DNA from: Candidatus Altimarinota bacterium
Lineage (GTDB): Bacteria > Patescibacteriota > Gracilibacteria > UBA1369 > GCA-2718715
Length of the DNA: 64,000 nucleotides
Assembly: GCA_041242255.1 (NCBI GenBank)
Contig: JBESAV010000001.1
Location: forward strand, 192,001 to 256,000
Direction: 5' to 3'
Part shown: positions 10,921 to 64,000 of the stretch, piece by piece
How the letters are laid out: each line of letters begins with the position of its first letter
Position numbering within the stretch: position 1 is the stretch's first letter
Notes under the pieces: generated by a model
What the model was told of the DNA's origin: nothing
The model's input: only the letters and a program-made list of their open reading frames with translations
Database searches by the model: none
Translations under genes and position numbers: made by a program

Positions 10921-12717
10921 ATGAATGACAAAAAGACAAGCAATCTTGATAAGTGGTTACAAAAAAATGTAACTCACTCTAAAGATGTTTCCTCTAATAA
11001 AAAAAGTAAATTTTCATATAGAGGAAGAAAATCAAAAGGAGACAAATTAAAAATCATTCCACTAGGTGGTTTGAACGAAGTTGGTAAAAACATGATGCTC
11101 CTTGAATACGGTGACGACATGATCGTTATCGACATGGGATTATTATTCCCTGAAGAAGACATGCTCGGAGTTGATTATATCGTTCCAGACATAACTTACC
11201 TTCAAAAAAACCAACATAAGTTAAGAGGTATACTTATTACCCATGGTCATCTAGATCATATCGGAGCAATATCTTACCTTGCACCAAAACTAAAAGATCC
11301 AAAATTTTATGGACTACCCCTTACTATGGGAATGGTTCAAAAGAAGATCTCTGAGTACAAAAGAGCTAGAAAGAGTGTAAATACTTTCCCAGTTAAACCT
11401 AGAAAAACTTTTAGACTTGGATGTTTCAAAGTAACTTTCTTCAGAGTAAACCATTCAATACCTGATTCAGCCGGAATCATTATTGAAACCCCTGAAGGAT
11501 TTGTAGTCCATACAGGTGATTTCAAATTTGATGAAACTCCAGCTGACGGACTTATGGCTGATACAGACATCATGAAGCTTATGGGGACCAAGAATGTAGT
11601 AGCACTACTCTCAGACAGTACAAATGCTACAAAACCTGGTTCAACAGTTTCAGAGAAAGTTGTAGGAGAAGCATTAGACGACATCATTACTAATACAGAT
11701 GGAAGAATAATCATAGCTTCTTTCGCCTCACTTATAGGTAGAATGCAACAGATTATTGATTCAGCTCAAAAAAATGGTCGTAAAATATTTGTGACTGGTC
11801 GATCAATGAAAGAAAATATCAAACTAGCTACCAAAATGGGATACATCAAATATCCTAAAGGACTAGTAACTGAGCTTAGAAGAGATAAAAATAAAGAATC
11901 ACATTCTAAAAATGCTTTAATTTTAACTACGGGTAGTCAAGGTGAGTCGTTGGCCGCACTTACAAGAATGGCCATGAATGAACATCCAAAAGTTAAAATC
12001 ATGCCAAGTGACACAGTTGTATACTCATCCTCCCCTATTATTGGTAATGAGAGAGCTATTACAGCCGTGGTAAATGAAATTACAAGAAAAGGTGCCAAAG
12101 TTATTACTAACAAACACATGGACATCCATACAACAGGTCATGGACACCAAGAAGACTTAAAAAGAATGATTAATTACATCAAACCTAAATACTTTATTCC
12201 AGTACATGGTGAATACTACATGAGGTGCGCACATAGAGATTTAGCCGTTGAAGAAGGAATTCCCCGTGAAAACACTTTTGTGATAGACAATGGAAATATC
12301 ATCGAAATACAAGACAAAAAAATGTCAGTTTCTAAACGTTCTCTACCAGACAAATACATCCTTGTAGATAACCAATCTAATGTCCTAGCTGGGATTGCAA
12401 CACACATCATTTCAGAAAGACAAGCTATGTCACTCAATGGAGTTGTTATAGTAACAGCCAACATTGACGCCAAAACCGGTAAGCTTAAATCTGCTAAAAC
12501 TGAATCACACGGATTTATATTTATGAGAAGTACAGAGAAAGTTATTGAAGAAATAACCAGAGACAGTATTGAAGCCTACAATAACCTTCATGACAAAAAA
12601 GATAAGCGAGTTACACCAAAAGAAGCTGCTGCAGAGCTTAAAACAGTTATCGACCGTAACTTCTTACGTAGAATCCAACGTCGCCCATTAGTTGTTCCTA
12701 TCATCAACGAGGTCTAA
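10921..12717 (+). CDS. rnj: Ribonuclease J
   Basis: 'PLGGLNEVGKNM', 'THGHLDHIG', 'HTTGHG', 'PVHGE'. Confidence 0.95.
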   Translation: MNDKKTSNLDKWLQKNVTHSKDVSSNKKSKFSYRGRKSKGDKLKIIPLGGLNEVGKNMMLLEYGDDMIVIDMGLLFPEEDMLGVDYIVPDITYLQKNQHKLRGILITHGHLDHIGAISYLAPKLKDPKFYGLPLTMGMVQKKISEYKRARKSVNTFPVKPRKTFRLGCFKVTFFRVNHSIPDSAGIIIETPEGFVVHTGDFKFDETPADGLMADTDIMKLMGTKNVVALLSDSTNATKPGSTVSEKVVGEALDDIITNTDGRIIIASFASLIGRMQQIIDSAQKNGRKIFVTGRSMKENIKLATKMGYIKYPKGLVTELRRDKNKESHSKNALILTTGSQGESLAALTRMAMNEHPKVKIMPSDTVVYSSSPIIGNERAITAVVNEITRKGAKVITNKHMDIHTTGHGHQEDLKRMINYIKPKYFIPVHGEYYMRCAHRDLAVEEGIPRENTFVIDNGNIIEIQDKKMSVSKRSLPDKYILVDNQSNVLAGIATHIISERQAMSLNGVVIVTANIDAKTGKLKSAKTESHGFIFMRSTEKVIEEITRDSIEAYNNLHDKKDKRVTPKEAAAELKTVIDRNFLRRIQRRPLVVPIINEV

Positions 12718-12722
12718 TAAAT

Positions 12723-12998
12723 TTGACAAAACAAATAAAAAACTTACTATTTCAAAAAGTAAGTTTTTTTATGGAATCAAATGAAATTCTTCTACAAGAA
12801 GTCATCCAAGAGATAGGAGAAATCAACCAAGACCAGGCCTACCTACTCCACCTGCTTTTCTTAGGTAATTATGAGTACAGTACTTTAAAAGAAGATCTTG
12901 AAAAAAACTTTACCAAAGAACAGATAAACCAAATTAAAAGTCACACTAACAATAGAGTCAAAACCCTTACCGAGATAACAGATTTCTCTTTTGAATAG
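12723..12998 (+). CDS. Small hypothetical protein
   Basis: ORF directly after rnj; ATG at 12771 is a more likely start; no recognisable motif. Confidence 0.5.
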   Translation: MTKQIKNLLFQKVSFFMESNEILLQEVIQEIGEINQDQAYLLHLLFLGNYEYSTLKEDLEKNFTKEQINQIKSHTNNRVKTLTEITDFSFE

Positions 12999-13024
12999 TG
13001 ATTTCCACCCAAAACCCAACATTC

Positions 13025-13620
13025 TAAATGTGCAAAACTAACAAAGAAACCTTATCAAATAGAGCAATAACCCACCCTGCAAAACTCCTGTAAAACCTAA
13101 TAGTATTAAACTATTTAACAATTGTTCCACAGCTTTTTTGACATACTAAAAATACAACGAATAATTCTTCACACAACTTTCACACACCCCTTCAGCCCAG
13201 CAAACTTTCGTCAAAGCCCAGCAAATAAATCAATCCTACAATCCACAATTACACATTTCCTCCCAACATTTTTCCCACAATCAGCCCCTTTCTCCACAAC
13301 TTATACACAATCTATACACATTTTTGTGCAAAACTATCAAGTTTCCCACAATCCATTTTTCAGCATTATTTAAACAAATCTCAAAAACAAACAATCACAA
13401 AAGCGCTTTAAATAAACATCCAACAAAAAATGTGCAAAAACTTTTTCCACAAAAATCAACCTTTTCCTCTAGTCTATAACCATAAAGCAGACTTTCACAC
13501 AAATTAACAACCTTTACACAATTCCCTTACTTATAAGCAATACTCCTCCTCTAAAACTTATACACAACAACACTACTACTACTATCTACTACTAATAATT
13601 TATTTAAATATATAAACACA
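13025..13620. other. Putative replication origin oriC
   Basis: Six TTWTNCACA matches (13029-13037 rev, 13301-13309, 13325-13333 rev, 13431-13439 rev, 13443-13451, 13558-13566) plus degenerate boxes; TAC trinucleotide run (~13572-13595) then AT-rich tract; directly upstream of dnaN. Confidence 0.85.
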
Positions 13621-13708
13621 TGTTCACAATCCCATAAACAGATAAATACAATTTTTCTTGTTTACCTCCCCCATTTCTGATTAAATTAGAACCACTAAAC
13701 AAAAACAC

Positions 13709-14818
13709 ATGAAAGCCACAATCAACCAACAGAAAATATCAAAAGCTTTAAACATTGTTACAAAAGCCATAAACAACAACAACACACTTCCAATCCTAAA
13801 TAACATCCTGATCGAAACCACAGAAAAAGGATTAAAATTCTCTGCAACAAACCTAGAAATAGCAATCAGCTACACAACAACAGGCTCCATCACAGAGCAA
13901 GGTTCGATCACAATTCCTGCCAAACTGATCACATCCTACGTTTCCCTACTCCACAACACAGACCTAGAACTTTCCACAGACGAAAAGCTTCACCTCCACA
14001 TCAACTCCGACACATCCAAAACAGAAATCAAAGGCCTTCAATCGGAAGATTATCCAACAATCCCAACAATCGAAGAAGAAGATCAATTCAAAATAAAAAT
14101 CAAAGATCTACTTCAAGCAATCAACCAAACCGTATTCGCCTCTTCAATCAACAACACTCGCCCAATCCTATCCGGTGTTTACATCCACATTCACAACAAT
14201 CAAATTACTTTCGCAGCCACTGACAGTTACCGTCTAGCAGAAAAAAAAGTTGCCATCAAAGAGTCTTCTTCAGAAGAACTTTCCTGCATCATTCCTGGAA
14301 AAACTCTGCAAGAATTGTCTAAAATTCTTCCCCTCTTCAATGAGGAACAAGAGGTTTCAATCTCTCTAAACAAAAACCAAATCGCCTTCCAACTTGAAGA
14401 ACTACTAGTTGTTTCACGGCTTATAGAAGGGAATTTCCCAAATTACCAAGCCATTATTCCAGAAGAATCCAATACCACTATTATTACAGATGCTTCAGAA
14501 TTGAACTTAGCGCTTAAAAGAATCAATCTTTTTGCACGAGAAATAAACAATTCCATCCATATGGAAGCCAACAAAGAGACCAAAAAACTCAACATCTCTA
14601 CAGATGAAACCAAGATAGGTGCCGAAGTAACTGAACTTGATATTGATATTCAGGGAGAAAACAATAGAATATCGCTGAATTCCCAATACCTCTTAGATGT
14701 ATTGAACATTCATTCTAACGGGGCTCTTATCCTCAAAGTTGTCGAAAAAAACAAACCAATCAAGGTTGTAACCGAAAAAGATGACAACTTCGTTTACATA
14801 ATCATGCCTCTCAAATAA
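13709..14818 (+). CDS. dnaN: DNA polymerase III beta sliding clamp
   Basis: 'LPILNNILI', 'ATNLE', 'ATDSYRLA', 'SRLIEGNFPNY', C-terminal 'IIMPL'. Confidence 0.97.
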   Translation: MKATINQQKISKALNIVTKAINNNNTLPILNNILIETTEKGLKFSATNLEIAISYTTTGSITEQGSITIPAKLITSYVSLLHNTDLELSTDEKLHLHINSDTSKTEIKGLQSEDYPTIPTIEEEDQFKIKIKDLLQAINQTVFASSINNTRPILSGVYIHIHNNQITFAATDSYRLAEKKVAIKESSSEELSCIIPGKTLQELSKILPLFNEEQEVSISLNKNQIAFQLEELLVVSRLIEGNFPNYQAIIPEESNTTIITDASELNLALKRINLFAREINNSIHMEANKETKKLNISTDETKIGAEVTELDIDIQGENNRISLNSQYLLDVLNIHSNGALILKVVEKNKPIKVVTEKDDNFVYIIMPLK

Positions 14819-18146: not shown

Positions 18147-18569
18147 GGGGATGAACATGGATTTCGATTTGTGTGACACGAAGTCAATGATCGCTGTGTC
18201 GGGATTGCTCTGTCTCCCGGTAGATCCGTCCAGAGCAAACATAAATGCAAACGATAACGAAGAATCTACTGTAGCTGCTCTTAAAGCTTTATTTGCTCAA
18301 CCAGTTGCTGCTTAATAGATTTTAATCTAAGCAATAGACACCCCAAAGCGGTGTCGAGCACTCATTCTCTAGTCTCGAGAGTTTAAGTGTTATATTAGAG
18401 ACTAAGCTTACTTTGTAAGGAGTGACAAGTAAGTCGAAAACCCTAAACCCTAGGTAGTAGTTTTTTGTTAGGTTTCCCACCTACTACTGAATTACCAAAT
18501 CTAACTATCATAGTAGACGTCATTGGTTTCCACATAAAGACTCGGGTTCAACTCCCGACATCTCCACCA
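18147..18569 (+). ncRNA. ssrA: tmRNA; tag ORF 18247-18315 encodes ANDNEESTVAALKALFAQPVAA
   Basis: 5' GGGGATG pairs with 3' CATCTCC-ACCA; T-arm 'gggttcaactccc'; resume codon GCA after 'ataaat'; tag starts AND and ends AA. Confidence 0.95.
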
Positions 18570-51296: not shown

Positions 51297-51372
51297 GCCA
51301 CCTTAGCTCAGCTGGTAGAGCAACGGTTTTGTAAACCGTGGGTCATCGGTTCGACTCCGATAGGTGGCTCCA
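51297..51372 (+). tRNA. tRNA-Thr(TGT)
   Basis: Cloverleaf, anticodon arm acggt-tt TGT aa-accgt, 3' CCA. Confidence 0.95.
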
Positions 51373-51379
51373 TTTATAT

Positions 51380-51464
51380 GGGTAGGTAGCGAAGTGGTCA
51401 AACGCATCGGACTGTAAATCCGCCGGCTACGCCTTCGGGGGTTCGAATCCCTCCCTGCCCACCA
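51380..51464 (+). tRNA. tRNA-Tyr(GTA)
   Basis: Cloverleaf with long variable arm, ct GTA aa loop, 3' CCA. Confidence 0.95.
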
Positions 51465-55842: not shown

Positions 55843-56283
55843 TTACCAGAATTTCCACCATCTTCTGTTTATATTCTCTTCTACCAGTTTCAGTTTGTTT
55901 TCAAGTGATATAACTTTATTTTGAAAAGTTTCGATTAATTTAAATAGATTTTCTTTCTCTTTAGCATGCTGTTCTACCAAAGTTTTCATCGTATCTGAGA
56001 ATTCAGTAAGCTGCTCTTGGAAACCTTCCATTTGTTTATTAGCAAGTTCAACTAATCCTTTGTTTTGACCAGGAACAATTCTTTGCGTAGTAGCTGCTCT
56101 AGCAACATTATACTCTTCACAAAAACTTTCTTTATCAATCAGGTAGTTAAAACCTTGTGGAGTTTTTTGTTTTTTGTAATCAATCTTGTTTGATTTTATC
56201 GCTCTGCGAATAGTCTGAATAGATTTATTGCTCAGTCTTGCAGCCTCTTTTATAGATATGTATTGATCTTGAACAGTGTTCAT
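55843..56283 (-). CDS. HTH (MerR/excisionase-like) plus coiled-coil protein with C-terminal amphipathic motif
   Basis: 'ISIKEAARLSNKSIQTIRRAIKSNKI'; heptad-rich C-half; ends RRWWKFW. Confidence 0.8.
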   Translation of the reverse strand: MNTVQDQYISIKEAARLSNKSIQTIRRAIKSNKIDYKKQKTPQGFNYLIDKESFCEEYNVARAATTQRIVPGQNKGLVELANKQMEGFQEQLTEFSDTMKTLVEQHAKEKENLFKLIETFQNKVISLENKLKLVEENINRRWWKFW

Positions 56284-56294
56284 AGTGCTAAAAA

Positions 56295-56323
56295 GTTATA
56301 TTGACTAGTCACAGGGTAGTCAA
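56295..56323 (-). promoter_or_regulatory. Promoter with inverted-repeat operator
   Basis: Minus strand TTGACT-17 bp-TATAAC; TTGACTA...TAGTCAA inverted repeat containing the GACTAGTC palindrome. Confidence 0.65.
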
Positions 56324-56453
56324 TGTTTAGGCGCTTATCAAGCTCCTGATAGCTACTCTATGTTGCACCAAAAAACATTAATTGTTTACATGTTTTAAAT
56401 TTTTGAGTTCATCCTAAACATCCTTTAAAATCACCCTATGTAAAAAACTAATT

Positions 56454-57029
56454 ATGGAGTTAGCACTAAGTTGGAATTTATTCGTACTAGCAATTTTTGT
56501 TGCTGTGACAGCCTACAGTCTTATCATTGGACTGAACAAAACTATTAAAACAGTTATCACATCATATTTAGCTCTTTTAGCAGCAGATGGATTAGGTAAT
56601 CTCACTCAAGAATATCTATTAGATTCTTCTCAAATCATCAAAGTCTTAGGGATATTTGGTTTAGAGTCAGATAGTACGACTGTTTTAGTAATCAAGTTAA
56701 CAATTTTCCTACTATGTATCGTTCTACTAACAATCAAAGGTGCTTTTGAGGTTCATATGGCTAGCGAGCGCTTTCCCTCACTTAATCCATTTATGACTTT
56801 AATATTCGGAATACTCAACTCTGCTCTTATAGTTAGCACGGGGTTGATCTTTGCAGCAGGATCATCTTTCATACGAGCAAACTTCGTAGAGACTAACATT
56901 GCAGAAGTTTATTCAAGCTCAACCTACATTCAATTACTTGTTGATTATCATAGTATCTGGTTCTCTTTACCGGTCGTTATTTTCATTGCCTGGTGTTTGC
57001 TTGATCACGAAATTGATGAAAACTTATAA
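56454..57029 (+). CDS. Multi-pass membrane protein (possibly CvpA-like)
   Basis: About five hydrophobic segments; family assignment tentative. Confidence 0.6.
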   Translation: MELALSWNLFVLAIFVAVTAYSLIIGLNKTIKTVITSYLALLAADGLGNLTQEYLLDSSQIIKVLGIFGLESDSTTVLVIKLTIFLLCIVLLTIKGAFEVHMASERFPSLNPFMTLIFGILNSALIVSTGLIFAAGSSFIRANFVETNIAEVYSSSTYIQLLVDYHSIWFSLPVVIFIAWCLLDHEIDENL

Positions 57030-57074
57030 AATCAGTTGATTTTCAAACAAAAATATATAATATGCCACCATATC

Positions 57075-57150
57075 GGGTTAATAGCTCAGTCGGTAGAGCA
57101 ACGGCCTTTTAAGCCGCGGGTCCTGGGTTCGAATCCCAGTTAACCCACCA
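57075..57150 (+). tRNA. tRNA-Lys(TTT)
   Basis: Cloverleaf, cggc-ct TTT aa-gccg, 3' CCA. Confidence 0.95.
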
Positions 57151-57208
57151 TTTATTCAAAAAACACCCATTACAAGAATAGGTGCTTTTTTGTTTTGTAT
57201 CCCTAGTT

Positions 57209-57625
57209 TTACTGTGTAATAACTGAAGAGGAGCTAGAGTTGTTTGCTGTACCATCAGTAATGTTAAAAGCAAAGTTAACAATCGCAAATGATGCAATGA
57301 TTATTATAATACCAATAATTGCATTTTTAATGATGTTTTTAGCTTTCTCAAGGTTATCACCACCTCCACCATCAGTAACGTATAGAATACCTGCGTAAAT
57401 CACAAATATTACAGCAACGAAACCAAGTAGTCCAAGCACAGTATTAATTATGCTTTGGATAACTGTTTTAATATCTCCAGATGTCCCAGACAGGGCACTT
57501 GGCAGATCACTTTGGTCTACTCCAAGTGATGCAATAGCAGCACCAGGCACCATGTTGAATACCATTAGTGCAACCGTCATCATAAGGAAGGCAAATATAG
57601 CCTTTTTCATACTAGTTTTTCTCAT
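57209..57625 (-). CDS. TrbC/VirB2-like pilin (CPR type)
   Basis: Signal region then two TM helices, 'IINTVLGLLGFVAVIFVIYAGILYVT...AKNIIKNAIIGIIII..SFAIVNF'. Confidence 0.75.
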   Translation of the reverse strand: MRKTSMKKAIFAFLMMTVALMVFNMVPGAAIASLGVDQSDLPSALSGTSGDIKTVIQSIINTVLGLLGFVAVIFVIYAGILYVTDGGGGDNLEKAKNIIKNAIIGIIIIIASFAIVNFAFNITDGTANNSSSSSVITQ

Positions 57626-57655
57626 AATTTTAATTAAATTTATCTAAATATTATA

Positions 57656-60640
57656 CTATTTTTCTTCTGTTATTTCAATTTCCGCCTTGTCAGATTCCAT
57701 TACATCTTTGATTCCTTTCTTTTTGTTATAAAGATACCAAGCAGTAAACAGTAGTATTAGAGCTAGTATTACAAGAGCAGGAGTAAATCCAGTAGGAAGT
57801 ACAATATATTCAACTACAACTGGCACACTGTTCGCGTTAGCTTTCTCTGCAAGTATCGTTACTTTATGACGGCTAAATGGCTCAATCTCAGCCACAGTCT
57901 CGTCAGGTGCGTATAGAACAGTCTCATCAGAGTTTGAACCAGTTATCGCTGAAGATCCAAACATAATACTCTGCCATAATGCTTTATGGTTAGTATTCAA
58001 CTCACTCTTAACACGTGCGCTTAAGCCACCGTTGTTGATCGTATTCATACTTACAAATGTCCAATAGTTAACACCATCTTCATTTGATTCGTATAGTCTG
58101 TTCACATCTTTCTCAGCAAAGCTAATCAAATTAGCTTCAATTAGTCGAACGCTATTTGATATCGCTAGTCCGTAATCTGGTGATTGTGTAGGAGTAGCAA
58201 CATCCCTACCATATACCAAGATATCATCACTTAAAGGTAAGCTTGTTCTGTTTCTTAAAAGGAATTTACCTGCCTCATCTACAGCTGCTATACCAAGTGA
58301 GTATTCACTATCAGCAATTACTGCAATAACCTCAACATTTTCAATAGATGAATCAGATACTTTACCGGCAATAACTATATCATCACTTCCATATCTAGAT
58401 TGTCTGTCTCTAGGTAGGTTAAGTTGGATAGTCGGTGCATCTTCATCTTCTTCAATAAACTCTTCACTTGGGTCACAGTCATATGACTTAGACTCTTCGT
58501 ACTCAATTTCAGAGTTATAATCTCCACATTCTTCAACTTCTTGAGATTGGTTCACTCTACCACCAGATCCATTTCCAGTAGTTAGGCTACCATTAAAGCT
58601 GATCTCTGCCTCTTCCTCTTCAGGTTGCTCTTCAGCAGTTTCTTCTTCAACAGGCTCCTCAGTAACTTGTTGTTCTTGAGGTTGTTCTTCCTCAACAGGT
58701 TGTGGTTCAGGCTCAGGAGTAACTATAGGCTGTTCTTCAGCAGTTTCTTCTTCAACGGGCTCTACTGTAACTTGTTCTTCTTGAGTTTGCTCTTCCTCAA
58801 CAGGTTCCTCAGTAACTTCTTGTTCTTCAGCAGTTTCTTCTTCAACAGGCTCTACTTCAGGGGTAGTATTTGATGCGCCAAAAGGATTTGATCCACCGCT
58901 TCCACTTGAAGATGATCCACTTCCACCAGAGCTAGGTGCAGGTTCCTCTACAACACCTACCAGATCATTTGGTAAGTTAAAAGATAAGTGTGTGAAGTCA
59001 TCCATTGAGTTATTTGCAAGATCCTGGAATACATCCGCATTTGGTGTAAATGAATCTGCTACTATATCCACACCATCCTCATCTATAAGACCAGCTGTAA
59101 CAACGTACGTAAATCCAAGTTCGTTATCTAGCAAAGTAGTATTAAGAGGGAAGTCATAGTCGGCTGTTACTATCACGCCACCAATGTCTAGGTCGATAGT
59201 TGATGTTCCATCTAGGGTCGCTTTGTTAACATCTTCATTCAGCTCTAGAATAGCCTCAATAGTATCACCTTCTTGGTGATTAGTTTCAACGTCCGCACCT
59301 CTACCATTATTTATGAATGGCCTTATACCATCAATTACAATATCTTTTGCAAATGAAAGTGATCCTACAATACCAGGTTCAGGTAAGTCTGTTGGAATAA
59401 CGGGTTGTCCTGGTCCAGTTTCAAAATAATAATCACCAACAAAGTTATCAGGTGCAAAGTCTTGATCTTTAAATTCAGCAGTACCAAGGTCAATAGCATC
59501 AGTTCCCGTATAGGATAGGTCAGATGATGAATCTCCTTCTGTTACTGTATATAAAAATCTCAGGAATGTTACAGGGCTACCTGGTCCAGTTCCTGCGAAA
59601 TTTTCATCAGTTCCTGTTGCCAGGTTGATTCCTCCTCCAGTAAAGGTGTCATCAGGTAGATTTTCAAGTGTTGCTTGTGATGTACCTGAATCAAGTTGTA
59701 ATTCTAAAGTAGGGTCCACTGTAGGCAATGGATCAAAAAACTCATCTCTAGGTTGATTGTAGTAAAAAAGCGTATCCGAATCAGATAAATTAACATCAAT
59801 GTTAATTTGATCACCAATACCATAAGTTTGGTCGGCATCTAGAGATGTTACATCTTCAGTCTCTCCAATATTAGTATTAGTAATTCTATATGTCTCAGTG
59901 CTTGATAGACCTCCGTCATCAGTGGCTTGAAGCGTTATATCATAAAAATCCACTCCGCCTCTATCTTCATAGTCGTAATCAGGTTGGAAGATTGTTAACC
60001 TAAAGTAAGTTCCCCCAAAACCATCGTCATATTCTTCAATAGATGGAGTAAATAAACCTGAACAGTCATCTGTGTTATTGTCTACACAGCTTACTTCTGC
60101 CACAGTTAGTGTGTCTGTAGTATCATCAGCATCAGGATCAAATAACATAGTCGTATTTTCAGAATAGAAGACTTGCCCATTATCACCTTGTTCTTCAAAT
60201 CTTAGTAATACAAAGTTTGCAGGGTTTTCAAAAGTAGGTGGCTCTGGTACGTCAGTAATATTAATTGTTATATCCTGAAAGATTGTAACTCCACCTGCTT
60301 CTTGTGCCTCAACACCTAGGGTGTATGATGCTCCAGCGTTAATGAGGTCATCTCTAACCAGCAAGATATCTCCGTTTGTATCAACATCAAATCTGAAGTT
60401 ACCAGGGCTAGATCCATCTGCTCCAGTCTCAAAAAATGTTATGTCTCCTGGGTCAGCATCAGTTTCTAGTGTTCCAACCACGCCATTAGTGGCGTTTTCA
60501 GGAACATCTAATATCGTGTCTCCAGGTGTCCCATCAACATATATTTGTGTTGGCGAGTCAGCACTAGCAACCATAGAGAAAGACATTGTCATCACTACAG
60601 TCAATAAAAAGCTAGTGCATTTCCTCAATAATTTTTTCAT
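57656..60640 (-). CDS. Large acidic surface protein with cadherin/Ig-like domains, Pro/Glu-rich stalk and C-terminal TM anchor
   Basis: Signal peptide; 'VPEN', 'ITDVPEPP', 'ATDDGGLS'; EPVEEE repeats; TM plus basic tail. Confidence 0.75.
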   Translation of the reverse strand: MKKLLRKCTSFLLTVVMTMSFSMVASADSPTQIYVDGTPGDTILDVPENATNGVVGTLETDADPGDITFFETGADGSSPGNFRFDVDTNGDILLVRDDLINAGASYTLGVEAQEAGGVTIFQDITINITDVPEPPTFENPANFVLLRFEEQGDNGQVFYSENTTMLFDPDADDTTDTLTVAEVSCVDNNTDDCSGLFTPSIEEYDDGFGGTYFRLTIFQPDYDYEDRGGVDFYDITLQATDDGGLSSTETYRITNTNIGETEDVTSLDADQTYGIGDQINIDVNLSDSDTLFYYNQPRDEFFDPLPTVDPTLELQLDSGTSQATLENLPDDTFTGGGINLATGTDENFAGTGPGSPVTFLRFLYTVTEGDSSSDLSYTGTDAIDLGTAEFKDQDFAPDNFVGDYYFETGPGQPVIPTDLPEPGIVGSLSFAKDIVIDGIRPFINNGRGADVETNHQEGDTIEAILELNEDVNKATLDGTSTIDLDIGGVIVTADYDFPLNTTLLDNELGFTYVVTAGLIDEDGVDIVADSFTPNADVFQDLANNSMDDFTHLSFNLPNDLVGVVEEPAPSSGGSGSSSSGSGGSNPFGASNTTPEVEPVEEETAEEQEVTEEPVEEEQTQEEQVTVEPVEEETAEEQPIVTPEPEPQPVEEEQPQEQQVTEEPVEEETAEEQPEEEEAEISFNGSLTTGNGSGGRVNQSQEVEECGDYNSEIEYEESKSYDCDPSEEFIEEDEDAPTIQLNLPRDRQSRYGSDDIVIAGKVSDSSIENVEVIAVIADSEYSLGIAAVDEAGKFLLRNRTSLPLSDDILVYGRDVATPTQSPDYGLAISNSVRLIEANLISFAEKDVNRLYESNEDGVNYWTFVSMNTINNGGLSARVKSELNTNHKALWQSIMFGSSAITGSNSDETVLYAPDETVAEIEPFSRHKVTILAEKANANSVPVVVEYIVLPTGFTPALVILALILLFTAWYLYNKKKGIKDVMESDKAEIEITEEK
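58610..58860 (-). repeat. Coding repeats EPVEEETAEEQ / EQQVTEEPVEE
   Basis: Three copies of 'tcttcagcagtttcttcttcaac' with interspersed variants. Confidence 0.8.
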
Positions 60641-60706
60641 AAATTAAAATTAACTAATCTATGAATTATAACAAAAAAAACACTTTTTTAAAAGTGTCAA
60701 ATTTGA

Positions 60707-60783
60707 TGGTCGGGGTAGCAGGACTCGAACCTGCGACCTCACGCTCCCAAAGCGCGCGCGCTAGCCAACTGCGCCATACCCCG
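60707..60783 (-). tRNA. tRNA-Pro(TGG)
   Basis: Reverse complement cggggta...cgcgc-tt TGG ga-gcgtg...taccccgacca. Confidence 0.95.
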
Positions 60784-60805
60784 ATGTCAAAATAACATGA
60801 GGATC

Positions 60806-61288
60806 TTATATTATGTCTTCGTAATAATCAATATCTAATTTCTTCAATATGTAATCAGTTTCCTTATTCATAAGCTCTTCTTCTGTATCATTTTCATGTG
60901 TATATCCACAAATATGTAAAAAACCATGTGTGATTAGGAATAAGACTTCTTGTCTTAAATCTTTAGATTTTTTATTAGCCTTCGCTACAACGTAATCATC
61001 TGATAGATAAATCTCACCAAAAATCTTATTGTCCTGAATGTCAGTTTCGTACATTTCCCATGATAGTACGTCTGTTACCATGTCTTTTCCACGCCTTGCA
61101 GAGTTTATCCCTTTTATCTGTAAGTCTGTTATGAAGTAAATCTCCAGAATAGCGTTAGTTGTCACTCTTGATAGATGAGGCTTGTATTCTGATAGGTACT
61201 TGTTAAGTGTTGTTTCAAATTCTATTAGAGTAAACTGATCCAACAGAGTTTCTAACGACTGAGACTCAAAATGTAAGTTTAGTTTCAT
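60806..61288 (-). CDS. ybeY: rRNA maturation endoribonuclease YbeY
   Basis: 'TDVLSW', 'GEIYLS', 'HGFLHICGYTH'. Confidence 0.93.
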   Translation of the reverse strand: MKLNLHFESQSLETLLDQFTLIEFETTLNKYLSEYKPHLSRVTTNAILEIYFITDLQIKGINSARRGKDMVTDVLSWEMYETDIQDNKIFGEIYLSDDYVVAKANKKSKDLRQEVLFLITHGFLHICGYTHENDTEEELMNKETDYILKKLDIDYYEDII

Positions 61289-61342
61289 GTCTTATTTGAT
61301 GTGTTTAGTTAAATATTACCCTATATATGTAAAAAGTGAAGT

Positions 61343-61800
61343 TGTCAGACGTGTCTGCGCCATGTCTTTTGTTTTAAGTCTTGTTTTTAAGGCATTTTTA
61401 TTTTGTCTGTCAGACAAAGTCGCGTCTGGCATTGACATGGCGCAGTCAATATAAGACAATAGCCTTAGTTTAAAGACATATGTCATGACAAGTCTCTACA
61501 GTATAGACAGGCAGAACGCTGCACGGATCCTTGGTGTGTCAGTCAGGACAGTCGACAGGTATATATCATCTGGTAAGATCAGAAAGGTCAAAAATCAAGG
61601 TAGGACATGGTTGTCTAATGAAGACATTAAGTCTATGGTTTCTGACAACGTTCAGACAGGTGCTGACAATGTCGCGTCAGAGTTCTTTTCGCAGACAGAT
61701 AAAGCACAAAGACAGTCAGATCATGTCTCAAATAACAATAACTCAGATAGCTTTTCTCAAGAGTCAGCATACAGAAGGCAAGAACCTCCAAGAGACAGTC
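61343..61800. repeat. Dense GAC/GTC (mostly GACA/TGTC) motif array
   Basis: About 40 GAC/GTC trinucleotides by hand count in ~460 bp; perfect 12-bp inverted repeat 61355-61366 / 61434-61445. Confidence 0.7.
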
Positions 61801-62159
61801 AGATGAATTACAAATCATTGTATGAAGAAGCAAAAGACGAGTTAGAAGAAAAAAATAAAAAACTGCAACAAGCCACTTACAGAATCGGACAACTAGAGTC
61901 ACAAGTGAAATCAATGATTCCTCAAATTGAATATGAAAAAACGCAAAAGTTGTTAAGTCAGAAGGTACAAAATGCAGAAATTATGCTTAGTCAAGAAGTT
62001 CAAAAAAGAGAAACTGCAACAAAAAAACTACTTGGAGAGCTTAAAATAAAAGAAAGTGAACTTGAAAGTGAAAAGTTCAACAAAGCTATTTTTGCTATTC
62101 TTCTGTTTTTAATAACCTTCACTTTAATTTTTGTTATCTTTCTTAATTACTTAAGTTAA
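61485..62159 (+). CDS. HTH (MerR/excisionase-like) plus coiled-coil protein with C-terminal transmembrane helix
   Basis: 'IDRQNAARILGVSVRTVDRYISSGKI'; 'YRIGQLESQV' coiled coil; ends 'AIFAILLFLITFTLIFVIFLNYLS'. Confidence 0.82.
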   Translation: MTSLYSIDRQNAARILGVSVRTVDRYISSGKIRKVKNQGRTWLSNEDIKSMVSDNVQTGADNVASEFFSQTDKAQRQSDHVSNNNNSDSFSQESAYRRQEPPRDSQMNYKSLYEEAKDELEEKNKKLQQATYRIGQLESQVKSMIPQIEYEKTQKLLSQKVQNAEIMLSQEVQKRETATKKLLGELKIKESELESEKFNKAIFAILLFLITFTLIFVIFLNYLS

Positions 62160-62338: not shown

Positions 62339-64000
62339 ATGTTTGCCCGCATATCAAAACCCAAAAACAAGCTGCAGAAGGTCCAGCTCAAAGCTTTAAT
62401 AGCACTGATATTTAGTTTTTGCCTACTTTCAGTAATTGACCTTCAAAGTAATAACTACGATGATTTATTAATATTCAAGTCAGAAGTAGCTTTTGCCGAT
62501 GTAAACGTAACTTCCTGTGAGCAGTTTCAAGGTACTGCTGCAGCAGGGACAAATCTTATCGATAACCCAGGTGAGACTTTTTTACTACAAAACGATATAG
62601 ATTGTGCTGGTGCTTCAATATCACCAATATTCCCAAGCAACAACAAGTTCACTGGTATTTTCGAAGGTAATGGTTTCACATTATCAAACTTCATTGTTCC
62701 ATCTTCATCAAGAGCCTCTTTATTTGGATATACAAGTAGTTCTACAATTCAAAATCTAACAATTAGAGACGCAGGTGTTACCTGTGATACAGGTGGTTAT
62801 TGTGCGGTCTTAATCGGGGATGATACTGAGTCAACAATTGATAACATAACCTTAATCAATACAACTTTAACCCAAAATGGAGGTAACGACCGTATGGGTT
62901 CTGTAATCGGTTCAGGTTTAGGTTCTCAGGTATCAAACGTAACTGTTGATGATTTTCAACTGACTTGTGATCAACTTTTTAGTGGATCCTGTCAGTATCT
63001 AGGAGGGGCTCTAGGGTTCATCAGTGACAATGCCACAGTTCAAGCATTTATTCAAAACGTAAGCGTAAACAACGCTACTATTTATGGACACGATAACATT
63101 GGTGGGGTTATAGGTTACATAAGTGAATCAAATGCTGATAATCTTACTGCTACAAACATCACCCTAGGGGGGCTAACAAATGTAGGTGGTGTAGTAGGTC
63201 AGCTTTTAGGTACAAATGGGTTAGAAGCTTATTTAGACAACTCTAGCGCTACAAACGTTACTCATGATCCTCAGGCTTACCTAACAGCAACTGGAAATAG
63301 TTCTACTAGTGTAACAGCTGTAGGAGGGTTGATAGGTACTGCCTCAAACTATACAAGTGTAAACTGTGGAGGAGAAACCACTAATTTCTACAACTCATCT
63401 TTGGCTAGTACAGTTAAGGTCGGAGGATTGATAGGTGATGCTAACTTTTTAGCTGCTACAGCCTCTGATGCTGTTAACTACACAGTAGAAAATTGTACAA
63501 CTTCTGGTTCTATCGAAGGGCGTACCTATCTTGGTGGAGTTATCGGTGAAGCTGCTGAAGGTAGATACAACAACCTTAACTCTACAGTAAACATTAAATT
63601 CACAGGTTCATCTCCTAATATTGGTGGTGGTATAATGGGGTGGTTTGATTTTTTAAACCCAGTAGAACCTGTTGGTTTAAGTAATTGTAGTTATACAGGT
63701 CAGATTAGTCTGGGTGACTATACAGGTACTACACCAAGTTACCTTGGAGGTATAGCTGGAGACTTAGATCACGCTTCTATAGATAATTGTACAGTTGATG
63801 TTTCCATACTTTCGCCAGAATCCATTTACATAGGTGGAGCAGTTGGAGCAGCTGGTGGGTCAACTACTGACTTAAATAATGTTATTTCAAATATTACTGC
63901 TAATGTTGAATTACAAGGTGAGCAATATGTTGGTGGTATAGTCGGACAGGCTACTGGTTACCTTCTCGATAATAATTCTGCTTCAGGAACGATAGATGGT
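62339..64000 (+). CDS. GLUG-motif surface protein, partial (runs off window end; absent from ORF track)
   Basis: ATG 62339 MFARISKPK...; 'LQNDIDC', 'FTGIFEGNGFTLSN'; repeated 'VGGLIG/VGGIVG/LGGVIG' motifs. Confidence 0.8.
   Translation, partial: MFARISKPKNKLQKVQLKALIALIFSFCLLSVIDLQSNNYDDLLIFKSEVAFADVNVTSCEQFQGTAAAGTNLIDNPGETFLLQNDIDCAGASISPIFPSNNKFTGIFEGNGFTLSNFIVPSSSRASLFGYTSSSTIQNLTIRDAGVTCDTGGYCAVLIGDDTESTIDNITLINTTLTQNGGNDRMGSVIGSGLGSQVSNVTVDDFQLTCDQLFSGSCQYLGGALGFISDNATVQAFIQNVSVNNATIYGHDNIGGVIGYISESNADNLTATNITLGGLTNVGGVVGQLLGTNGLEAYLDNSSATNVTHDPQAYLTATGNSSTSVTAVGGLIGTASNYTSVNCGGETTNFYNSSLASTVKVGGLIGDANFLAATASDAVNYTVENCTTSGSIEGRTYLGGVIGEAAEGRYNNLNSTVNIKFTGSSPNIGGGIMGWFDFLNPVEPVGLSNCSYTGQISLGDYTGTTPSYLGGIAGDLDHASIDNCTVDVSILSPESIYIGGAVGAAGGSTTDLNNVISNITANVELQGEQYVGGIVGQATGYLLDNNSASGTIDG

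Follow-up and report, generated by a model that had tools for sequence, protein, structure and literature searches.

The stretch of DNA analysed here, called the window throughout, comprises 64,000 nucleotides of the genome of a Candidatus Altimarinota bacterium (contig JBESAV010000001.1, positions 192,001 to 256,000 of the forward strand). It carries two genes, P1 and P2, each of which codes for a protein with a winged helix-turn-helix (HTH) domain at the N-terminus, a linker and a long helical part. A sequence-only reading had proposed that these genes are co-regulated paralogues which share a promoter element and together tether the chromosome to the membrane. Both open reading frames (ORFs), at 55843-56283 on the minus strand and at 61485-62159 on the plus strand, exist and encode 146 and 224 amino acids (aa), and the common architecture holds as a description, as judged by matches to the Pfam family HTH_17 and by AlphaFold2 (AF2) models. 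A dense array of short GACA/TGTC words surrounds the start of P2. The features of P2 are the following, in window coordinates as everywhere below unless a genome position is given:

61485 to 62159, plus strand: the P2 gene, 224 aa, whose product has a winged HTH, then a disordered linker and two long helices, and a transmembrane (TM) helix at the C-terminus.
61497 to 61661, plus strand: the winged HTH of P2, residues 5-59, with invariant R9, R21, T22, D24 and R25 (AF2, Foldseek).
61797 to 62072, plus strand: the cytoplasmic helices of P2, residues 105-196, a presumed coiled coil with a conserved ANYRxGQLExQ (AF2, alignment).
62088 to 62144, plus strand: the TM helix of P2, about residues 202-220, followed by 4 residues (Kyte-Doolittle).
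61343 to 61797, no strand assigned: the GACA/TGTC array, 26 cores in about 460 bp (genome-wide density scan).

The AF2 models were built on alignments of 37 homologues for P2 and 35 for P1. The P2 model, with a predicted local distance difference test (pLDDT) score of 84, shows a winged HTH with the element order E-H-H-E-E-H, disorder at residues 65-102 and helices at residues 105-143 and 147-223. HTH_17 matches P2 with 32.4 bits, above the threshold of 27 (33.8 bits in the genome scan). P1 and P2 are the only credible HTH_17 genes in the 1.0-Mb genome, and the next matches reach 15.8 and 12.2 bits. At the C-terminus of P2 the Kyte-Doolittle mean over 19 residues is 3.16 at residue 202. Because this last stretch of 19 residues is strongly hydrophobic and only 4 residues follow it, P2 looks tail-anchored. 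The hydrophobic C-terminus is kept in the relatives of P2, where Q and W columns are nearly invariant. In the long helices of both P1 and P2, conserved hydrophobic columns recur with a period of 3.5-3.6 residues, which is compatible with a coiled coil. As predicted from sequence and model, P2 would sit in the inner membrane by its tail anchor, with the HTH facing the cytoplasm.

The array covers the intergenic region between ybeY and P2, the candidate P2 promoter and the first 310 nt of P2, which code for the HTH and the linker. Its density of 24 cores per 400 bp at 61351-61750, compared to a genome mean of 1.75 (standard deviation 1.45), is the maximum of the genome. The second-highest TGTC density, at genome 333.1-333.5 kb, belongs to a coding tandem repeat inside a 429-aa ORF, and the remaining small GACA clusters in the genome are ordinary coding sequence. 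Spacings between same-strand cores peak at 9-12, 20-22, 31-34 and 42-44 bp. Since these are helical periods, the sites would lie on one face of the helix. The coding region contains 16 cores, compared to 9.5 ± 1.9 in synonymous shuffles, and this number was reached in none of 500 shuffles.

Arrays of this kind were also observed at P2 in related genomes. In 29 of 38 relatives the region of ±300 nt around the P2 start holds 10 cores or more, at a minimum of three times the local background; the core count at the P2 start has a median of 14 and ranges from 3 to 35. The same core-density test at P1 loci gave 2/36 and 0/36. The repeated word in the relatives is mostly TAGACA, with GAGACA, CAGACA or CTGACA in the window's family, and it often occurs as TGTCTAGACA, TGTCTATAGACA or direct GTAGACA repeats. 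Searching for a triple-TAGACA pattern gave 38 matches in 18 of 41 genomes, of which 33 lie at a P2 start, 2 upstream of P1 and 3 elsewhere; the reversed control gave 21 matches, concentrated in few genomes. The coding-region excess over synonymous-codon shuffles is seen in 8 of 38 genomes, including this one. No conserved polarity of the array was found among the relatives compared.

P2 is widely distributed. Of 41 genomes of the order, 39 have P2 and 37 have P1. When the class was sampled evenly, full-length P2 was present in 71 of 101 genomes, including lineages in which it is interrupted only by TGA codons. P1 occurs in all nine in-order genomes of this sample and in one of the 92 outside, where the match falls on a P2 homologue. 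A sample of the phylum gave full-length P2 matches in 4 genomes (this genome and 3 in-order relatives), a match in two parts in one further genome of the class (G057), and 14 matches outside the class that are weak and mostly restricted to the HTH region. When the P2 profile was compared with 1.84 billion representative sequences, 169 clusters were matched at E ≤ 1e-30 and, at the looser limit of E ≤ 1e-10, 409; among the best 150, lengths are 169-313 aa. The sources of P1 and P2 homologues are named Peregrinibacteria or Patescibacteria, and sequencing runs with this DNA are labelled marine metagenome.

The second gene and its putative binding site comprise these features:

55843 to 56283, minus strand: the P1 gene, 146 aa, with a winged HTH, a linker, a long helix and a basic Trp-rich tail (ORF list).
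56110 to 56262, minus strand: the winged HTH of P1, residues 8-58 (E-H-H-E-E-H in AF2, alignment, hhalign).
55870 to 56055, minus strand: the long helix of P1, residues 77-138, a presumed coiled-coil or dimerisation element (AF2, pLDDT 89-98).
55846 to 55869, minus strand: the C-terminal tail of P1, NRRWWKFW (W142 conservation, hydrophobic moment 0.75).
56301 to 56323, no strand assigned: the candidate P1 operator TTGACTA-N9-TAGTCAA, which holds the 10-bp palindrome TGACTAGTCA at 56302-56311.

The P1 model has a pLDDT of 83, with disorder at residues 67-76 and a short C-terminal turn after the long helix. Residues K20, S21, Q23, T24, R26, R27, T41, Q43, G44 and Y47 of its HTH are invariant in the homologue alignment. 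HTH_17 (PF12728) matches P1 with 19.9 bits, under the gathering threshold of 27, and a precomputed PF12728 match is present on many P1 homologues. Different membrane anchors had been claimed for the two proteins. The TM helix of P2 is borne out by its hydrophobicity, and P1 does end in NRRWWKFW but has no TM segment (Kyte-Doolittle 19-residue maximum 0.25). W142 in this tail is invariant in 35 of 35 aligned homologues, whose tails mostly read K-K-W-[WYF]-x-[FL]-W; the two f6 genomes deviate. The tail is only 8 residues long, with the hydrophobic moment listed above, and from its sequence it may target the membrane or bind a partner.

Judged by its sequence, the palindrome TGACTAGTCA is this genome's version of an order-wide palindrome, TTGAYTARTCAA, and it is flanked here by an extra TTGACTA. 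In 22 of 37 genomes the 12-bp TTGAYTARTCAA is found no further than 400 nt upstream of P1, with most copies between -50 and -65, and in relatives a second full or half site is often located 20-30 bp beyond it. Palindromes of this type occur at 164 sites in 41 genomes, compared to 14 for the reversed control. The heptamers TAGTCAA of P1 and TAGACAA of P2 differ only at the centre, which fits two diverged copies of one HTH. The case for cross-regulation between P1 and P2 was considered and found to be weak: only 3 of 38 genomes have a full P1-type palindrome in the 400 nt upstream of P2, and lone TRRTCAA heptamers upstream of P2 are, by our estimate, too common by chance to count. Two variations were observed at P1 loci. 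One genus has a TAGACA triple about 300 nt upstream of P1 (G025:C1:28285-28341 and G037:C2:76679-76735), the only sign of P2-type sites at any P1 gene. Around the P1 gene of the two f6 genomes, 4-6 copies of the P1-type palindrome are grouped into a small array (G014:C5:31400-31988, locus L074, and G032:C4:27365-27815, locus L073), and the P1 homologues there carry a differing aromatic C-terminal tail.

To what extent P1 and P2 belong together was assessed from profiles, inheritance and linkage. Alignment of the two profiles with hhalign covers the N-terminal 59 columns only (96% probability, E 3.5e-9), and no similarity between the proteins was found by BLASTP (E 1.1). The description as paralogues can thus be kept for the HTH and has to be dropped for the remainder. 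On these alignments, P1 and P2 are separate DNA-binding proteins whose common part is an ancient MerR/Xis-type winged HTH only. As P2 occurs throughout the class and P1 is restricted to the order, the two do not form an obligate pair; with similarity confined to the HTH and no co-inheritance, the proposed single co-regulated system is not upheld. Tight linkage was not found either. Among the 36 genomes that have both genes, they lie less than 10 kb apart in only 10, of which 7 belong to the window's own family; another 6 genomes carry both on one contig at a distance of 13-125 kb, and in 20 they are on separate contigs. The genes between P1 and P2 are housekeeping genes and vary among relatives.

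The element that P1 and P2 had been proposed to share is an 11-mer at the end of an inverted repeat in both upstream regions:

56296 to 56306, minus strand: 11-mer AGTCAATATAA, copy 1, which is the right half-site of the candidate P1 operator plus TATAA.
61444 to 61454, plus strand: 11-mer AGTCAATATAA, copy 2, in the spacer of a TTGACA-17-GACAAT promoter-like site at 61432-61460.

Inverted repeats and 11-mers are located as the earlier reading had given them, that of P2 being TTGAC-N8-GTCAA at 61432-61449. As a regulatory element the 11-mer was rejected as unproven, since its count and sharing are at chance level and it was not found upstream of P2 homologues in related genomes. The 1.0-Mb genome contains three exact copies, compared to about two expected from base counts, and with one mismatch there are 4 matches in the window against 3.1 expected. 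An exact 11-mer is common to 1933 of 94,395 pairs of upstream regions (2.05%); 15 other upstream regions share one with that of P2 and 14 with that of P1. The spaced repeat TTGAC-N5-12-GTCAA occurs 6 times genome-wide, compared to 3-12 times in 10 shuffles. The third copy of AGTCAATATAA, at genome 434258-434268, points from a distance of 57 nt towards the start of an ftsE-like ABC ATPase gene; each of the three copies in the genome thus sits upstream of, and faces, a gene start.

To place P1 and P2 among known proteins, structure and profile comparisons were combined with the literature; statements on published systems refer to the available parts of the cited papers. With Foldseek, the P2 HTH was matched best by Xis of mycobacteriophage Pukovnik, RacA, BldC, GlnR/MerR proteins and the DNA-binding domain of pSK1 Par, with probabilities of 0.98-1.00 and target-normalised TM-scores of 0.58-0.79. 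The matches of P1, which are to regulators of the MarR and MerR types, P2 Cox, Xis and RacA, are weaker. Searching the PDB sequences, the P1 profile gave no match to RacA, and Cox was not significant in the profile searches of P1 and P2 (E 0.037). No RacA-type NCBIfam match was observed at E ≤ 0.1. On the models, the layout of P1 and P2, a winged HTH followed by a linker, a presumed coiled coil and a candidate anchor, matches the class formed by RacA, RocS, RicO and pSK1 Par, whose members tether DNA.

The nearest parallel to P2 is pSK1 Par, a staphylococcal plasmid partition protein (PDB 8csh), which has, as predicted for P2, an N-terminal MerR-type winged HTH and a coiled coil. Its DNA-binding domain superposes on the P2 HTH with a target-normalised TM-score of 0.72 (E 0.12). 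As proposed for P2, one protein and one cis site form a cassette, in which the protein binds repeats beside its own gene. The pSK1 par centromere reportedly lies upstream of the par gene and consists of direct repeats plus an inverted repeat. Compared to this centromere, the P2 array is larger, has a core of 4-6 bp and extends into the coding region. Further, pSK1 Par is plasmid-borne and carries DUF536 and a MinD-like amphipathic helix (PMC11500499), whereas P2 is chromosomal and has a true TM helix.

RocS, RacA and Par have been described as proteins with a winged HTH, a coiled coil and a C-terminal module, with DUF536 and the MinD-like helix belonging to RocS and Par (PMC11500499). RocS of Streptococcus pneumoniae links DNA to the membrane and, as predicted for P1 and P2, combines a winged HTH and a coiled coil with a C-terminal membrane anchor; P1 is near to it in size and layout. 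Unlike P1 and P2, RocS has DUF536, a MinD-like targeting sequence and oligomerisation-dependent membrane binding (PMC11500499). DUF536 was not found anywhere in this genome at E ≤ 1, and a Lactococcus control was matched. Judged by description, the C-termini of P1 and P2 are unlike the MinD-type helix in the available text of PMC13042908, and the P1 tail, a short basic Trp cluster, is of another sequence type than the RocS targeting sequence. P1 also differs from RocS in that it has a specific palindrome and appears regulator-like, and no sequence homology to RocS was detected in the Pfam, NCBIfam and PDB profile comparisons.

RicO of Staphylococcus aureus, which acts where the Par system is incomplete, binds the membrane and nine origin-proximal sites, and its family has been charted only in Firmicutes (bioRxiv 10.64898/2026.03.06.710092). 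Its nine 18-bp ricS sites are dispersed over about 700 kb and its anchor is an amphipathic helix, whereas P2 has one dense locus and a TM helix and belongs to a class of the Candidate Phyla Radiation (CPR). According to the same preprint, the distribution of the RacA/RocS/RicO design beyond Firmicutes is still open. In RacA of Bacillus subtilis the order of parts is the same as that predicted for P1 and P2, with the winged HTH connected via a disordered region to the coiled coil (PMC4914108). Unlike P2, RacA has a GC-rich centromere (PMC4914108). It is also sporulation-specific. Over about 56 columns its DNA-binding domain is 25-27% identical to that of P2 (Foldseek). Its membrane contact runs via DivIVA, and no DivIVA was found in this genome. 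RacA sites are said to be dispersed.

A possible binding mode is provided by BldC, whose MerR-like winged HTH forms cooperative head-to-tail multimers on direct repeats (PMC5859096). BldC superposes on the P2 HTH with a root-mean-square deviation of 1.2 Å and a target-normalised TM-score of 0.76, and its binding mode could serve as a model for P2 coating a phased array. Unlike P2, BldC and Xis are single-domain proteins that lack a coiled coil or anchor.

Two familiar classes were considered for P1 and P2 and rejected. Members of the MerR family consist of a winged HTH, an antiparallel coiled coil and a C-terminal effector domain, and their operator lies in a promoter spacer of 19-20 bp. Pfam MerR matches stay below the cut-off of 28.2 (P2 20.8 bits, P1 12.8 bits), both proteins lack an effector domain and have a disordered linker between HTH and helix, and the candidate promoter spacers at P1 and P2 are 17 nt long. 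Excisionases and other directionality factors are small proteins of a single domain, encoded next to an integrase in a mobile element. An assignment to this class does not agree with proteins of 146 and 224 aa that carry extra domains and are near-universal in the order; also, no integrase or recombinase was found in their neighbourhood. Among the papers listed in a literature search on chromosome segregation in Patescibacteria, none was seen to describe these CPR proteins, which does not prove that there is no such description.

With respect to the replication origin, dnaN lies at 13709-14818, and four DnaA-box-like words with one mismatch are located at 13290-13566 in the 1-kb gap upstream of it (region 12717-14818). 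The gene dnaA is at genome 828 kb, about 620 kb away. P1 and P2 are 42-48 kb from the cluster of DnaA-box-like words, a putative oriC, and P2 about 48 kb, which agrees with the 43-48 kb given before. P2 and dnaN are 37-135 kb apart in all 7 genomes that have both on one contig. In the complete relative G010, dnaA and dnaN are also distant from each other (852 and 1361 kb).

Regarding known segregation factors, this complete 1-Mb genome gave no match to ParB_N, AAA_31, CbiA (ParA/MinD type) or DivIVA. A protein of SMC size was not found in it: SMC_N matches only frames of at most 973 aa, and the best match is a 395-aa RecF-like frame. In the class sample, ParB_N matches occur in 25 of 101 genomes, mostly in proteins of 420-470 aa that are not typical ParB. 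Such a match is present in 12 of 71 genomes with P2 and in 13 of 30 without.

The architecture of the proteins, their conservation and two cis elements with genome-wide specificity are observed. We infer from them the pairing of each protein with its element, cooperative binding, membrane tethering and any role in segregation. By analogy with its winged HTH relatives Xis, BldC, RacA and pSK1 Par, which bind repeated sites in this manner, P2 would multimerise cooperatively on the (T)AGACA array, which is helically phased and extends across the promoter and the 5′ coding region of P2 itself. Binding would repress the P2 promoter, a necessary autoregulation, and would also hold at the membrane an origin-proximal locus that is situated about 48 kb from the DnaA-box cluster, so that P2 and its array would constitute a self-contained cassette of a gene plus a centromere-like site. 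P1 would be an order-specific dimeric regulator with TTGAYTARTCAA as its target, both in the P1 promoter and at a small number of further sites in each genome, and the conserved tail, basic and rich in Trp, may bring it into peripheral contact with the membrane or a partner. We consider this combination the most probable and give it an even chance; in it, P2 coats its own array for autoregulation and origin-proximal tethering and P1 is a palindrome-binding regulator. The tether role once proposed for both proteins is plausible for P2, where the dense GACA array strengthens it, and a joint P1-P2 system is not supported.

A wider reading is more tentative, and we would put it well below even. 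P2 and its phased array might form a device, reduced to one protein, that anchors or partitions the chromosome and corresponds to the plasmid system pSK1 par, with a TM anchor built in. It would be conserved across the CPR class and replace the missing ParABS, SMC and Min systems by keeping an origin-proximal locus at the membrane; P1 would be a later, order-specific regulatory offshoot of the HTH. If true, the device would span Peregrinibacteria, Gracilibacteria and Absconditabacteria-like lineages, including TGA-recoded ones.

Several points weigh against a tethering role of P2 and the model built on it. The pairing of P2 with the array and of P1 with the palindrome is drawn from co-location and co-conservation only, and plain autoregulation predicts just such an array across the promoter of the regulator's own gene. 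Of 20 P2 loci sampled outside the order, only 4 have at least 10 cores in the 350 nt upstream, and TGA-recoded lineages have 0-5 cores upstream of P2; given so few cores, the ancestral role of P2 may be simple autorepression. The P2-dnaN distance varies between 37 and 135 kb, and shared synteny could explain the proximity. RacA and RicO use dispersed sites, not a single locus. The complementarity of ParB and P2 across the class is weak and confounded by phylogeny. Foldseek E-values for the P2 HTH are weak (4e-3 to 0.13), the RacA DNA-binding domain is not significant when the P2 profile is compared with PDB sequences (E 0.28), and DUF536 is absent from the Pfam matches of P1 and P2 at E ≤ 1. 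For P1, the sites beyond its own promoter are few in this genome, and some are intragenic.

Much of this would also be expected if P1 and P2 were ordinary autoregulated transcription factors, with P2 tethered to the membrane, where it would be kept inactive or active and perhaps be released or clustered upon an envelope signal, and with the array serving tight cooperative autorepression and no positioning. Both cis elements overlap the promoter regions of their own genes, HTH_17 and MerR-type domains mostly belong to regulators (as do the Foldseek matches to MerR, GlnR and MarR), sites upstream of P2 are few outside the order, and several P1 palindromes per genome resemble a small regulon. On the other hand, 15-35 phased sites, some of them intragenic, are far beyond what known autoregulatory operators need. 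P2 also has no obvious sensor, because only 4 residues follow its TM helix, and it would regulate essentially itself alone, since the triple-TAGACA pattern is nearly confined to the P2 locus. We regard plain autoregulation as the main rival, less probable than tethering by P2.

It is less probable still, and in our view improbable, that the GACA array serves another process or protein, such as a site for replication, termination or recombination, and that P2 is merely adjacent. The array is located where the one-signed GC skew of this genome is weakest (-0.2 to -0.4, 48-73 kb), Xis-type folds are the top structural matches and HTH_17 includes excisionase-like factors. However, the array tracks the P2 start through rearrangements in at least 14 families with any neighbours, no integrase or recombinase lies nearby, and the DnaA-box-like sites cluster 48 kb away. 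That P1 and P2 are remnants of a mobile element, i.e. excisionase-like genes of a prophage or an integrative and conjugative element with attachment-site repeats, is very improbable: matches to PHROG excisionase families (E 5e-6 to 3e-5) and nearby tRNA genes would suit such an origin, but P2 and P1 are near-universal in the order (39/41 and 37/41), P2 is present in 71 of 101 genomes class-wide, the surroundings are housekeeping genes and the genome has only two credible HTH_17 genes.

For the question of how chromosomes are organised and segregated in ultra-small CPR bacteria, a conserved, predicted tail-anchored winged HTH protein with the genome's only dense helically phased array provides a concrete protein-DNA pair for testing. 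If P2 is a functional analogue of RacA, RocS and RicO, it would extend their design to the CPR, with another anchor and another layout of sites. Even if P2 only regulates itself, a regulator on 15-35 phased sites over its own gene is unusual.

The neighbourhood of P1 and P2 in the window contains genes for GDH, a membrane protein, a pilin-like protein and YbeY as well as tRNA genes. The membrane protein gene is the neighbour of P1:

56454 to 57029, plus strand: a divergent gene for a multi-pass membrane protein of 191 aa that has no Pfam family.

It is adjacent to P1 also in the window's family and in some other families, and the intergenic region with the P1 palindromes is common to both genes. 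The interval 57209-60640 between P1 and P2 codes for a protein resembling a type IV secretion system pilin (138 aa, PF18895) and for a 994-aa protein in which an acidic repeat region rich in E, P and Q is combined with a TM helix at the C-terminus. Downstream of P2, a giant ORF of 3351 aa starts at 62339. RNA genes at 18147-18569, 51297-51464, 57075-57150 and 60707-60783 comprise tmRNA, tRNA-Thr, tRNA-Tyr, tRNA-Lys and tRNA-Pro, the last two of which lie between P1 and P2. Paired DUF881 genes directly adjoin P2, in varying orientation, in 15 of 38 relatives that represent 11 families (loci L007-L012, L032, L034, L035, L038, L042, L047, L048 and L050-L052). The DUF881 family was not found in this genome, and the papers listed in a literature search for it deal, by their titles and the beginnings of their abstracts, with other subjects.

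The base composition of the genome is strongly asymmetric, with 229,343 C and 134,751 G on the plus strand. GC skew at third codon positions and 4-fold sites is C-rich on the plus strand for both gene orientations, and its sign never changes. Between genome 775 kb and 205 kb, across position 0, the skew amounts to about -0.6 to -0.8; it is weakest (about -0.2 to -0.4) at 48-73 kb of the window around P1 and P2, and then ramps back. At 4-fold sites it is -0.7 to the left of 13 kb in the window, with a transition near 8-20 kb. A comparable strand disparity has been reported for Microgenomates, and Peregrinibacteria are called typical in the available text of that report (PMC7143001). The complete relative G010 has a milder one-signed skew (about 0 compared to -0.2), with a transition near its own dnaN.

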